From an uncultured delta proteobacterium (GTDB lineage: Bacteria; Desulfobacterota; Syntrophia; Syntrophales; Smithellaceae): 64,000 bases of DNA. Position numbers and translations under genes: made by a program. Where the stretch lies: contig CAVQAL010000003.1 of the NCBI GenBank assembly GCA_963710575.1, positions 319,387-383,386 on the forward strand, read 5' to 3'. The notes below the pieces were generated by a model. That model was given only the letters and a program-made list of their open reading frames with translations, had not been told where the DNA came from and did not search any database. Shown piece after piece: positions 35,450 to 39,991 of the stretch. Each line of letters begins with the position of its first letter. Position 1 is the stretch's first letter.

Positions 35450-35779
35450 ATGCCTGTTTATTTACAAATACTACTGCTGGTTGCCGCCTTTGTTGCCATT
35501 GTTGTCCTGATTCTTTACATGGGTGGTTTGGCTGTTCAGAAGACATGTTTAAAAATTATCGCCGAAATGGAAGAAGCCAGAGCCTTTAAAGAAGCGAGGG
35601 CTGTTGCTATTCAAGATGAACGGAAAAATTTCTTCCGCGTGGGAGTTAAAAACATTCGCCCCAAAGCGCTGAACCTGCTGATTGCTGATGGTCTGGTAAT
35701 CAAAACAAATAACGGGAAATATTATCTGGATAAAGAAAAACTCTCTCAGGCTAAAGCTCAGCTAAAAATTAATTCCTGA
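35450..35779 (+). CDS. Hypothetical membrane-anchored protein
   Basis: N-terminal TM helix; start estimated. Confidence 0.6.
   Translation: MPVYLQILLLVAAFVAIVVLILYMGGLAVQKTCLKIIAEMEEARAFKEARAVAIQDERKNFFRVGVKNIRPKALNLLIADGLVIKTNNGKYYLDKEKLSQAKAQLKINS
35711..35764 (+). repeat. Direct repeat, copy 1 (3' end of the 35450 gene)
   Basis: aacgggaaatattatctggataaagaaaaactctctcaggctaaagctcagcta. Confidence 0.8.
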
Positions 35780-35865: not shown

Positions 35866-36834
35866 TTATAAACGGATCTTGTCCGCGTCATATATTGCTT
35901 CGTTCTTTTCCAGGAGGCGGAGTTTATCGTAATCAACTAATTGCTCTGTCGGAATATAATGAGAAGATGTCCACGCGGATGTTTTCACCGTCGAATTGGC
36001 GCGTAATTTACCAATTCCGCCAAGACAGTAACGGCACGAGTTCAGCGGTTCTTTAGACAATAGATAATTTTTAAGTATATCCTGAAAATTGGAATCGCCG
36101 GTAATCCGAATACCGTCTTTTTTGTAATCATGGGCAGCGGATTGATCAATAATTCTTGGAATATATATACACTGAGCACACTTGAAAAAATATCCCTCGT
36201 AGATTGAATGACACCCCCAAATACGTGCTCTTAAACACGTTCTGTATATACACCTTATGAGCGACATATCACTCGTTCCGATCAGCGAAAATGGAATCCG
36301 GAAATTTTCATAAAGAATCATGGTGAGCTTGACCTTGTGCTTTTCGGCATTTTGCCGAATGACCGGCATATGCATATCCAGCATCTTTCTTGTTTCCGGA
36401 TAGACGGAAAGTTCAACCTCATCAAGTACCTCCCAAATATCACTGCCCATTTGATGCAAAAGCATTCCATTGGTAACAAGAAAAATATGATTGCATATGC
36501 CGCTTTTACGGCCGGCGCGAATTACAGAAAGCAAGTCCGGATGCAGCAGCGGCTCCCCGCCGATAATTTTCAGCGCTTGGGCTTTGTACGATTTGGACAA
36601 AAGCGAAAGATCGCGAAAAACAATATCAGGATCGGCAAATTTTGGAACCATCGCGGGCGCTGCGTGATCGCAATCAGTACATCTGCGATTACAGTGATCG
36701 ACCACGTTTATTTCAAAACTGTATGGCGGAGCAATTTTGCCGTCAACGATACGGAAGCAGCGCCAGTCATCCGGAGTCTTAGTAACAGCGGGTCTTAAAA
36801 ATGACCTGAAGGACGAAAATAATTTGTTGACCAT
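35866..36834 (-). CDS. Radical SAM protein of unknown function
   Basis: HCNRRCTDC, GGEPLLHP, LVTNG, Cys-rich C-terminus. Confidence 0.88.
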   Translation of the reverse strand: MVNKLFSSFRSFLRPAVTKTPDDWRCFRIVDGKIAPPYSFEINVVDHCNRRCTDCDHAAPAMVPKFADPDIVFRDLSLLSKSYKAQALKIIGGEPLLHPDLLSVIRAGRKSGICNHIFLVTNGMLLHQMGSDIWEVLDEVELSVYPETRKMLDMHMPVIRQNAEKHKVKLTMILYENFRIPFSLIGTSDMSLIRCIYRTCLRARIWGCHSIYEGYFFKCAQCIYIPRIIDQSAAHDYKKDGIRITGDSNFQDILKNYLLSKEPLNSCRYCLGGIGKLRANSTVKTSAWTSSHYIPTEQLVDYDKLRLLEKNEAIYDADKIRL

Positions 36835-36988
36835 AATTGCAATAAAGTCCCTTGGCTATCTGCTTTCGATGAATTGTTTTTTTCACAGCTACTGAAAATG
36901 TATAAGACATGAACGTTTGTCATGTCAATGAAATACCGACAAAAAAATGCGGAAAAAACATAGATCAAATTAATTGAAATTCACGATG

Positions 36989-37042
36989 AACAGGAAATAT
37001 TATCTGGACAAAGAAAAACTCGCACAGGCCAAAACTCAATTA
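36989..37042 (+). repeat. Direct repeat, copy 2
   Basis: aacaggaaatattatctggacaaagaaaaactcgcacaggccaaaactcaatta. Confidence 0.8.
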
Positions 37043-37118
37043 GGTTCTTAATTTAAAGACGAAAAATACTTTGTTTTTATTTTAACACTGCGTCACCTGA
37101 GCATAAGTGAGCTGAAAG

Positions 37119-37874
37119 TTATCTGATCTTTTTAGTTTTATAACGTGAAATCTTTTCAAGTGTGGCTTTTACTAATCCGTCATGTCCCACTTTATAATAG
37201 TCCAAATAACCAATCGTTGAGGTAATACCTGGAATCTCAGTTTCATCCAATTTAACTGGAAGAATATACTCTCTATTCTCCATAAGCGCCCTTGCTTGGG
37301 CCGATTTACGCTCGTGGTTTGTCCAAACTTTAGTTGCATAATGTCTTGATAAAAAGATTATACAGAAATGTGCTTTTAATCGATATATGGTGTCAAATGT
37401 ATCATAAAGGTTGGTTCCCCAAAGATCAACCTCTTCAAAGTCAGCATAGAATATTTTGAGACCGTGATTCTTAACCGCTTCAGCGTATGACTGCACAATT
37501 AATCTGTCTTCTCCAGCAAAGGAAATAGCTAAATCATATTGAACTTCTTGAGGACGAGATAAAACATTTGCTTCTGGTTTTGCAGTACGTATTTTTTCGA
37601 TACCTATTTGCGGTCGTTCTAATACACCAAGCCCTTTACATGTTGGACAGATAGATCCTTGCGAAAATAAATCGGCAAGGTCAACCCCTGTTATTATTCC
37701 GCGGCCACCACAAAATTTACACGTCGTTAATTTTTCCGGAGGCACATTTAGATCAAACTCGCCAGCCCCTTTGCAGGAAGGGCAAGGCTTTCTACCTTGA
37801 CTTAGAATATTACTAAAGGGGTCGTTAGTCAGAATTGAGCCACTACCACCGCAAATCTTACACTTTATTATCAA
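37119..37874 (-). CDS. DnaJ-type zinc finger fused to a TIR domain
   Basis: Four CxxCxGxG motifs; YDLAISFAGEDR, IIFLSRHY, WTNHER, YILPV; TTG start. Confidence 0.85.
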   Translation of the reverse strand: MIIKCKICGGSGSILTNDPFSNILSQGRKPCPSCKGAGEFDLNVPPEKLTTCKFCGGRGIITGVDLADLFSQGSICPTCKGLGVLERPQIGIEKIRTAKPEANVLSRPQEVQYDLAISFAGEDRLIVQSYAEAVKNHGLKIFYADFEEVDLWGTNLYDTFDTIYRLKAHFCIIFLSRHYATKVWTNHERKSAQARALMENREYILPVKLDETEIPGITSTIGYLDYYKVGHDGLVKATLEKISRYKTKKIR

Positions 37875-37999
37875 TATTCATCCTTATATGGCAATTATTA
37901 ATAAGTATTAAAATACTGTCTTTGCTTTTTTTGATACTTTGGATGCAAAAAAAATAACATAACTTTCTGATTTTCAAAAGCAAAAAAATCAATTTTTAG

Positions 38000-38119
38000 G
38001 GCTGTTCAAAAATACTCAGATGCAAGGCGCGTAAAAAGCGAACCGCGAGGCGTATATGGCAATACGTTGAGCGGTACGGTTTGCAGCGCAACGCAGTAGA
38101 TGAGCGGTTTTCAACAGCC
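38000..38119. repeat. MITE-like element with terminal inverted repeats
   Basis: ggctgttcaaaaa...ttttcaacagcc; core aggcgta..tacgttgag shared with family B; overlaps the mnmG stop codon. Confidence 0.75.
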
Positions 38120-39991
38120 TTTCAGTTCGTGTTTTTTCATCATAATTAACACGGCCGATATGGCGCCTTCGGTCATACCGATAATGCGCTCCATCTGGCC
38201 CAGCGTTTGCGGCGCTATTTTGGTGAGTTTTGATTTCAATTCATTGGAGAGCCCGGGGACGGAGTTGTAATCAAAATCCAGCGGTATTTTCTTTTTTTCC
38301 TGATCTTTTAATTTTTTCACAGCATCGAACTGCCGCTTGATGTAGCCTTCATATTTCGTTTCTATTTCGATCTGCTGTTTGACAAAAGAATCACTTTGCG
38401 GCTCCCATCCGGGAAACACGGCCAGATTGTCATAAGAGATTTCATAACGTTTCAGCAGACCGTAAAGAGTGGAGTGATTATTCAAAGGCGGCGATGGGAT
38501 GTTTGCCAATGCTTCGTTTATTTCCGGCGTCGGATTGATTGATGCTGCTTTCAGCAGCGAAATGCCCTGCTCGATTTGATGTATTTTATCCTGTAAAGAT
38601 AAATAATGCTCTCTATCAATCAACCCCAGTTCCCAGCCTTTGCCCATCAAACGGATGACGGCATTATCTTCTCGCAGAATGAGGCGGTATTCGGCGCGCG
38701 ATGTGAACATGCGATAGGGTTCATCCACGCCGCGCGTGACCAGATCATCGATCATAACGGCCATGTAAGCCTCGGAGCGATCCAGAATAAACGCGGGTGC
38801 GCCCTGCACAGAGCGCGCGGCATTGATTCCCGCCCAGAGACCCTGCGCCGCCGCTTCCTCATAACCGGATGTGCCGTTTATCTGGCCGGCCAGATATAAG
38901 CCCTGAACCAATTTTGTCTCCAGAGTGGGTTTGAGCTGTGTCGGCTGAACAAAATCATATTCAATAGCGTAGGCCGGGCGCATGATCTGCGCCTGTTCCA
39001 ATCCCTTTACGCTACGCACAATCTTATATTGCAATTCCAGCGGCAGGCAGTTGCCCAAACCTTTGGCATAAACTTCCTGCGTGTCCAGTCCTTCATGCTC
39101 CAGCACCACAGGATGACTTTCGCGCTCGCTAAAGCGCATGACCTTATCTTCCAGCGAAGGACAGTAGCGGGCGCTCACTCCTTTGATGACGCCGGAATAA
39201 AGGGGCGAATATTGAATATTCTCCCGAATCACACGATGTGTTTCGGCTGATGTGGCGGAAAAATACGAAGGCAGACGCTCAGGCCGCAGTGCGGCGGTGG
39301 TAAAAGAAAAAGGCTTAGGATCGGGGTCGCTGTCCTGTCGCTCTAATCGGGAAAAATCAATAGAGGATGCGCACAGGCGGGGCGGTGTTCCTGTTTTCAT
39401 TCTGCCGATATCAAAACCAAGCCCTTTGAGATTATTGGCAAGCCCGATGGAAGCCAGTTCTCCGGCGCGTCCCGAAGGTGTTTGCGAAGCGCCGACATGC
39501 ACAAGACCATTTAGAAAAGTTCCGGTGGTAATAACAACTTTTTTCGCTCCGTAAAAATGTTCGCTTTGATCAAGTACGCCGATTACTGTGCCGTCTTCAA
39601 TTACAAGGCTTTCAATCATGGCCTGTCTAATATAAAGATTGGGTTGATTCTCGACCACTGCTTTCATTGTCAGGCGATAAAGTTGTTTATCACACTGCAT
39701 CCGGGAAGAATGAACTGCCGGGCCTTTGGAGGCGTTGAGCATGCGAAAATGCACGGCGGTTTTATCGGTAACCTTGCCTATCTCACCGCCAAGAGCATCA
39801 ATTTCCTTGACCAGTTGTCCTTTGGCTAAGCCCCCGATGGCCGGGTTGCAGGACATAAGCGCTATCGAATCCAAATTAATATTGAATAAAATTGTCCGGT
39901 AACCCATGCGCGCTGAAGCCAAGGCCGCTTCGCAGCCGGCATGCCCGCCGCCGATTACCGCAACATCATAGTTGTCAATTAAATTATCCAT
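38111..39991 (-). CDS. mnmG: tRNA uridine-5-carboxymethylaminomethyl modification enzyme
   Basis: [53 protein letters not shown]. Confidence 0.97.

Follow-up and report, generated by a model that had tools for sequence, protein, structure and literature searches.

No immune switches simpler than single-protein TIR systems are known, and the key question in each of them is how infection is sensed. This question also arises for a gene of an uncultured delta proteobacterium of the Smithellaceae (assembly GCA_963710575.1, contig CAVQAL010000003.1), which joins a DnaJ-type zinc finger to a TIR domain. The gene lies in a stretch of 64,000 nucleotides that was analysed as a whole and is called the window here. 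An earlier note on this DNA had described four CxxCxGxG repeats followed by a TIR domain that retains the catalytic glutamate (WTNHE), encoded in an AT-rich insert between mnmG and a radical-SAM insert with no ThsA-like partner adjacent, and had proposed a stand-alone defence protein of a kind known from no characterised system. Our comparative analysis leads us to regard the product, the zinc-finger-TIR protein, as probably a stand-alone TIR conflict or defence effector. A fuller reading, in which it would be a TIR NADase of the SpbK kind that works without a partner, with the zinc finger binding the trigger and thereby bringing the TIR domains together, is in our judgement an even call.

Both halves of the protein could be assigned by profile comparison. 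The N-terminal module carries the knuckles CKICGGSG (residues 5-12), CPSCKGAG (31-38), CKFCGGRG (52-59) and CPTCKGLG (76-83), and matches Pfam PF00684 (DnaJ_CXXCXGXG) with 38.9 bits, above the cut-off of 32.7. When the whole window was translated in six frames, five CxxCxGxG motifs were found, four of them in this one frame and within 80 codons. A PDB profile search with the zinc finger returned the cysteine-rich (CR) domain of E. coli DnaJ (1exk, E = 1.6e-4), the match spanning all four motifs. For the second half, Pfam TIR_2 covers residues 117-228 (50 bits against a cut-off of 28, E = 5e-13), and a phmmer comparison with the PDB aligned residues 111-207 with BtTir (7uxr, 6.9e-8) and AbTir (7uwg/8g83), placing WTNHE column for column on WTEYE of BtTir and WTNYE of AbTir. 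The architecture first described, including the catalytic glutamate, was thus borne out. An in-frame TGA immediately 5' of the TTG start at 37874 rules out a longer reading of the frame, and AAGGA stands upstream with a 6-nt spacer. Besides the zinc finger, the linker of ~18 residues and the TIR domain, the protein contains no coiled coil or other oligomeriser. In the full-length AlphaFold2 (AF2) model, the knuckles reach a predicted local distance difference test (pLDDT) score of 74-89, with strands at residues 2-4 and 84-86, and the linker falls below 50 over residues 93-106. The top Foldseek matches of this model are BtTir, TcpB/BtpA, PdTIR and AbTir, all with a probability of 1.00 (7uxr, 4lqc, 3h16 and 7uwg). 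These four proteins, the best matches of the TIR half in sequence as well as in fold, have the WxxxE motif and the SxxxED box in common with it, and differ in carrying an N-terminal coiled coil where the present protein has a zinc finger; identity is ~23-30%. Judged by alignment, the TIR half belongs to the NADase-competent bacterial class, and NAD+ glycohydrolase activity is predicted for it.

We then asked how the two halves vary among relatives. A search of 5.8 billion protein clusters recovered 572 relatives at E<=1e-3, nearly all of ~250 residues and containing both Pfam domains; their identity reaches 80%, and with a Firmicutes metagenome-assembled genome (MAG) and Candidatus Methanoperedens among their sources, the set includes bacteria and archaea. 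In alignments of 30 and 99 sequences, all eight cysteines, the knuckle glycines, WTNHER and much of the TIR domain are invariant or nearly so, with W184, T185, N186, H187, E188 and R189 unchanged in the 30 homologues and conserved to at least 95% in the 99. Mean pairwise identity amounts to 69% for the TIR domain and 52% for the whole zinc-finger module, and drops to 23% in the first of the loops between knuckles (residues 13-30). Likewise, column entropy is 2.5-2.8 bits in the loops at residues 13-30 and 60-75, compared to 0.5-0.9 in the knuckles. The loops also differ in length, and some family members have six knuckles. In its four CxxCxGxG knuckles, the PF00684 score and the 1exk match, the module resembles the DnaJ CR domain and the stand-alone relatives of that domain, Anti-TRAP and BSD2. 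Unlike DnaJ, the zinc-finger-TIR protein has neither a J-domain nor C-terminal substrate-binding domains, its finger is fused to an effector, and the stretches from knuckle 1 to 2 and from knuckle 3 to 4 are hypervariable and longer (26 and 24 residues from Cys to Cys, as against 17 and 14 in E. coli DnaJ). The DnaJ equivalog model gave 29.8 bits with a cut-off of 377, and no J-domain was matched; because the J-domain is lacking, the protein is not a DnaJ, and the genuine DnaJ of the genome is encoded elsewhere (L126). The idea that the finger was copied recently, as a decoy, from the CR domain of the host's DnaJ was considered and rejected: the similarity of 34% over 53 residues comprises essentially the cysteines and glycines only.

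With one genome taken per species, the full architecture occurs in 8 of 185,579 species genomes, namely in Desulfomonilia (two), Oligoflexales, Zixibacteria, Methanoperedens, Chloroflexia (two) and Planctomycetales. The copies in Desulfomonilia and Oligoflexales MAGs are 72-80% identical, that of Methanoperedens 50%. The zinc-finger-TIR gene was not found in any of 35 other species of the genus, one of which encodes a TIR of the same clade behind an unrelated N-terminus. The gene passes between phyla on its own. These data bear on a quite different function, that of a non-catalytic TIR scaffold, a housekeeping regulator, or a secreted effector against other organisms like TcpB/BtpA. The high rank of TcpB/BtpA in the Foldseek search and the housekeeping surroundings of some family members would suit such a role; the strict conservation of the catalytic motif, the lack of a signal peptide or secretion context, and the nature of the carriers, which are free-living anaerobes and archaea, argue against it. 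A housekeeping role is further contradicted by the absence of the gene from every other species of the genus searched. We therefore consider this explanation extremely improbable.

At the locus itself, the zinc-finger-TIR gene is foreign, single-gene cargo in a hypervariable hotspot. Its GC content is 0.385 (0.286 at third codon positions), compared to 0.494 and 0.522 for mnmG, and DNA comparison with 22 other genomes of the genus found both flanks but nothing that corresponds to the segment at ~36935-37926. The AT-rich insert recognised in the earlier note is therefore real. Conserved genes enclose it, mnmG and a second radical-SAM gene at one end, and a small gene for a 133-residue protein together with a methyltransferase gene at the other. 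What lies from mnmG to the small gene is different in each of the related species examined (L109-L116), and all of this cargo is of low GC. Depending on the species, the slot holds genes for a GINT1_N-like protein, an HTH-HATPase-DUF4325 protein or a DUF2971 protein, or three unknown genes; in one related species, a 132-residue TIR-like/Nuc_deoxyrib_tr protein (CBASS TIR-effector model, 1.6e-12) is followed by an unknown one of 200 residues, and in another HicA is accompanied by unknowns of 714 and 404 residues.

Does the protein act with a partner? Two all-against-all comparisons of the neighbouring genes, drawn from ~14 independent contexts (metagenome contigs, MAGs and the window), revealed no conserved neighbour beyond generic ABC-ATPase similarity. 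The radical-SAM gene at 35866-36834 was tried as a partner and rejected, as viperin and MoaA models match only its radical-SAM core, far below their cut-offs. Since two copies of a 50-nt repeat bracket this gene and it sits beside other cargo in three related species, it represents an independent cassette rather than a partner. The zinc-finger-TIR gene thus has the radical-SAM cassette and mnmG as neighbours and no adjacent ThsA-like gene, as had been stated. In the genome, which is 92% complete, this gene gives the single TIR_2 match, and no match to STALD (the ThsA SLOG domain) was obtained, a weak negative in that control genomes gave none either; the search did not extend to Macro-TM and caspase-type effectors.

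Accordingly, we weighed a Thoeris-like arrangement, in which the TIR domain makes a cyclic ADP-ribose (cADPR) isomer or an ADP-ribose conjugate for an effector encoded elsewhere in the genome. Several observations are in keeping with such signalling: AbTir and BtTir, the closest solved TIRs, produce cADPR isomers, the ThsB1 hidden Markov model (HMM) matches the TIR domain at 5.5e-8, and Thoeris ThsB is a TIR protein of similar size. SpbK itself makes N1-cADPR, of unknown role (PMC12847820). However, every described Thoeris type has its TIR and effector genes in one operon, whereas no neighbour is kept across the contexts compared here, no ThsA-type effector lies nearby, none of the SLOG type was found genome-wide, and the gene crosses phyla alone. 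Because there is no ThsB-ThsA operon, the protein is not a Thoeris member, and the missing operon partner weakens the case for Thoeris-like signalling, which we regard as very unlikely.

Further evidence for a stand-alone effector came from the partners of each half in other proteins. The TIR clade, defined by WTNHER and the YILPVRLDDTEIPG box and 45-60% identical over residues ~105-245, occurs with other partners in more than 240 further species genomes. Its fusions include TIR-TIR-TPR arrays, a 1379-residue STAND NTPase, Mrr_cat, many unknown N- or C-terminal extensions and, on a viral contig, an HNH-like Cys-rich domain. In a recurrent protein of 269 residues (L036:1980-2789 of Labilibaculum; also L044, L055 and L069), a TIR of this WTNHE-type clade follows the N-terminal 126 residues of PD-Lambda-3_B (PADLOC 1e-33), which stems from an experimentally found E. 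coli defence system. The zinc finger is exchanged as well. When residues 1-105 alone were compared by phmmer with 1.84 billion representatives, only 54 proteins matched at E<=1e-3, and housekeeping DnaJ thus did not swamp the result; the fusion partners were read from the matches scanned and do not amount to a full census. [quoted passage not shown] The PNP domain of this protein matches PDC-M60C at 1e-41 and the CBASS PN-superfamily effector at 5e-26, and no STAND or Death-domain partner is adjacent within 8 kb downstream. P0135 combines the same finger with PNP_UDP_1, P0143 and P0158 combine it with a CAP12/Pycsar-type TIR (PDC-S35, 5e-51), and P0141 with PF27235, a domain whose relatives include one HEPN_RiboL-PSP match. 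Kaur et al. described PNPase and TIR as NAD+/nucleotide-processing effectors fused to bDLD3 in conflict systems, in a survey of Death-like domains that makes no mention of a DnaJ-type finger (PMC8195603). Swapping on both sides, of the N-terminal module and of the toxic domain, is the classic signature of immune sensor-effector proteins.

The best PADLOC match is PDC-S66, a single-gene candidate (6.5e-16), which is also the best match of every member of the TIR clade tested. Only positions 138-240 of its 282-position profile, the TIR, are covered, and its N-terminal part is not the zinc finger; because the TIR part of the model alone is matched, the protein is not a full-length PDC-S66. PDC-S66 is itself a prediction only and appears in the literature as no more than an entry in two genome papers. 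Other top matches among the defence HMMs are ThsB1 and RT-TIR, together with the NCBIfam retron-TIR antiphage model, whose TIR gave the top NCBIfam match (40 bits against a 600-bit cut-off); no NCBIfam equivalog was found. Consistent with the view that no characterised system has such an N-terminal module, we found no paper that describes a DnaJ-type zinc finger combined with a TIR. The gene contexts are mixed. In an Oligoflexales MAG (L015), a gene for an OLD-family nuclease (Old HMM, 2.7e-58) lies 90 bp upstream of the zinc-finger-TIR gene, and other contexts hold PIN/VapB, PhD/PIN, HigB/HTH and RelB pairs, HNH, SIR2 and a match to Shedu SduA. Given that several contexts are housekeeping ones, they are no more than suggestive of enrichment in defence islands. 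The proposal of a stand-alone defence candidate is well supported by comparison: the gene is sporadic, foreign cargo with no conserved partner, and both of its domains are swapped with defence domains.

How could such a protein be switched on? A precedent is SpbK of Bacillus subtilis ICEBs1, a single-chain TIR NADase whose N-terminal domain docks on the phage portal dodecamer, the resulting clustering activating the TIR (PMC12847820). SpbK resembles the zinc-finger-TIR protein in being a single polypeptide of ~250-270 residues with an N-terminal recognition domain (a putative one in our protein) followed by a TIR, and in being carried on horizontally moving DNA without a partner gene (PMC12847820). 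More generally, TIR NADases are active only when assembled head to tail; the active site forms between neighbouring TIRs, so that the enzyme works only after this assembly, and SpbK, STING-TIR, SAVED-TIR, SARM1 and plant NLRs rely on an accessory domain to gather their TIR domains (PMC12847820). SpbK's N-terminal domain is unrelated to the putatively two-zinc DnaJ-type finger, and SpbK is neither among the PDB sequence matches of the zinc-finger-TIR protein at E<=1 nor among its top 50 Foldseek matches. With its architecture and the absence of a partner gene, the zinc-finger-TIR protein is a candidate for the SpbK-like type. In E. coli, the single-protein systems TIR-I to TIR-IX protect against phage and recognise diverse phage proteins (Wang et al., 2024; PMC11350192); in the portions of that account used here, no zinc-finger architecture is described.

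On the model of SpbK, we infer a defence role and the following trigger. The zinc-finger-TIR protein would be an immune protein of one polypeptide, acquired horizontally, by which infection is aborted. Its DnaJ-type double zinc finger would serve as a regulatory or recognition module on the flexible ~18-residue linker, with the hypervariable inter-knuckle loops binding a multimeric or abundant component of the invader, most likely a phage structural or replication protein. Binding would concentrate several copies of the protein and allow the TIR domains to assemble, and the assembled TIR would deplete NAD+ before the phage cycle is completed, possibly with cADPR isomers as by-products. Three points fit the suggestion of the earlier note that the finger may sense phage or unfolded proteins and drive TIR oligomerisation: the hypervariable loops, the lack of any other oligomeriser in the protein, and the precedent of SpbK. 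That the zinc finger is the trigger-binding part has, in our estimate, at best an even chance of being right.

The same module might instead make the protein a suicide or dormancy toxin triggered by stress or nucleic acid. Here, the finger would bind non-native host proteins upon proteostasis collapse or chaperone hijack, or DNA like UvrA, or would only keep the protein inactive or oligomeric. The DnaJ CR domain binds unfolded substrates and the zinc module of Anti-TRAP is an oligomerisation unit, and the finger profile matches, besides 1exk, the UvrA zinc module in the PDB about equally well (2-5e-4) as well as Anti-TRAP models; the finger is also mildly basic, with a pI of 8.5. Because of the UvrA match, there is room for a DNA-binding or purely structural finger. 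Against such a toxin, the similarity to host DnaJ is at motif level only and the J-domain is lacking, the hypervariable loops suit diversifying recognition better than the generic sensing of unfolded proteins, and a constitutively oligomeric TIR would require an antitoxin, of which none is conserved. On balance, we find a toxin of this kind unlikely.

Several observations weigh against the SpbK-like immune reading. Searches of 72,556 plasmids and 50,697 phage genomes gave no full-length copy, whereby carriage of the family by phages or plasmids was rejected, and 2.9 million viral contigs yield only three relatives, all of them TIR-only. The variable loops may simply lack constraint. Several of the contexts are plain housekeeping (gyrase, pyrimidine synthesis, IMPDH/GuaA and LepA). 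P0122 has a Death-like adaptor domain besides the zinc finger, and the trigger may there arrive via another protein, so that the finger need not be the sensor. Finally, the full-length AF2 model is only moderate (pLDDT 72.8 overall) and a model of the zinc finger by itself reaches a pLDDT of 49; the two-zinc hairpin topology, with knuckles 1+4 and 2+3 paired, is therefore read from the sequence.

The fusions of the finger to different effectors allow for a broader proposal, which we hold to be quite unlikely. The DnaJ-type finger may be a portable immune sensor derived from a chaperone client-binding domain, in bacteria and archaea alike, that would sense phage proteins in a non-native state or during assembly, or phage factors directed against DnaK/DnaJ (as an integrated decoy), and would be coupled to interchangeable effectors such as TIR, PNP nucleosidase, Pycsar-type TIR and HEPN-like domains. 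If so, proteostasis surveillance would be linked directly to NAD+ or nucleotide depletion in bacteria and archaea. As far as the sequences tell, the family is widespread and has a portable zinc-finger module that we did not find described, and would otherwise represent single-chain TIR immunity of a known type. The module is very small (~90 residues), metal-stabilised, equipped with two hypervariable loops and reused before at least four effector domains in bacteria and archaea; should it be the sensor, it would constitute a new compact recognition scaffold of chaperone ancestry. A protein of 250 residues is also tractable for learning how target binding switches on TIR assembly.

Features of the zinc-finger-TIR gene and of its insertion slot, in window coordinates
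Feature	Position	Strand	Remarks
CDS, zinc-finger-TIR protein, 251 residues	37119..37874	-	TTG start, TAA stop; open reading frame exactly at these positions
Promoter-like site AAGACA, 17 nt, AATAAT	37922-37894	-	consensus match only
Shine-Dalgarno AAGGA	37881-37885	-	consensus match only
N-terminal DnaJ-CR-type zinc-finger module, residues 1-92	37599..37874	-	four CxxCxGxG knuckles
Knuckle starts, zinc finger	37862, 37784, 37721, 37649	-	
Variable linker from zinc finger to TIR, residues 93-110 (18 residues)	37545..37598	-	entropy 2.28 bits
TIR domain, residues 111-230, AbTir/BtTir/TcpB-like bacterial class	37185..37544	-	
WTNHE, WxxxE catalytic motif, residues 184-188	37311..37325	-	putative catalytic Glu188
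C-terminal Lys-rich helix, residues 231-251	37122..37184	-	AF2 helix over residues 226-250; moderate conservation
Small gene, 133 residues	35378-35779	+	no family match; 72-92% amino-acid conservation in every related species examined
Left slot border, 50-nt duplicate of the 3' end of the small gene (35711-35760)	36989..37038	+	88% identical
Right slot border, REP/MITE-like hairpin repeat, ~130 nt	37984..38120	-	directly after the mnmG stop

The borders of the slot have features of their own. The repeat that brackets the radical-SAM cassette recurs, at ~60 bp, between successive cassettes in two related species, three times in L114 (3440/4706/5484) and twice in L116 (4865/6767). From this pattern, single-gene cassettes seem to have entered repeatedly and site-specifically at the 3' end of the small gene, the apparent target of the insertions; the surroundings showed no integrase. 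An imperfect inverted repeat of 20 nt (37114-37133 and 37948-37967, 85% complementary) bounds the zinc-finger-TIR gene almost exactly, and was treated as chance, since its sequence is AT-rich and 2.9 kb contain nine pairs of this kind. No Rfam match was obtained for the intergenic repeats. The repeat at the right border, which when folded takes the form of a long imperfect hairpin (-44.6 kcal/mol, z = -4.35), resembles a REP/MITE-like element or a terminator module. It has ~20 copies in this genome (among them G000:C3:390477, C11:30615, C14:70250 and C9:58965), and many copies, 85-93% identical, are present in every other genome of the genus searched. Given the range of cargo in the slot, the hotspot 3' of mnmG in this genus could be mined for more defence candidates.

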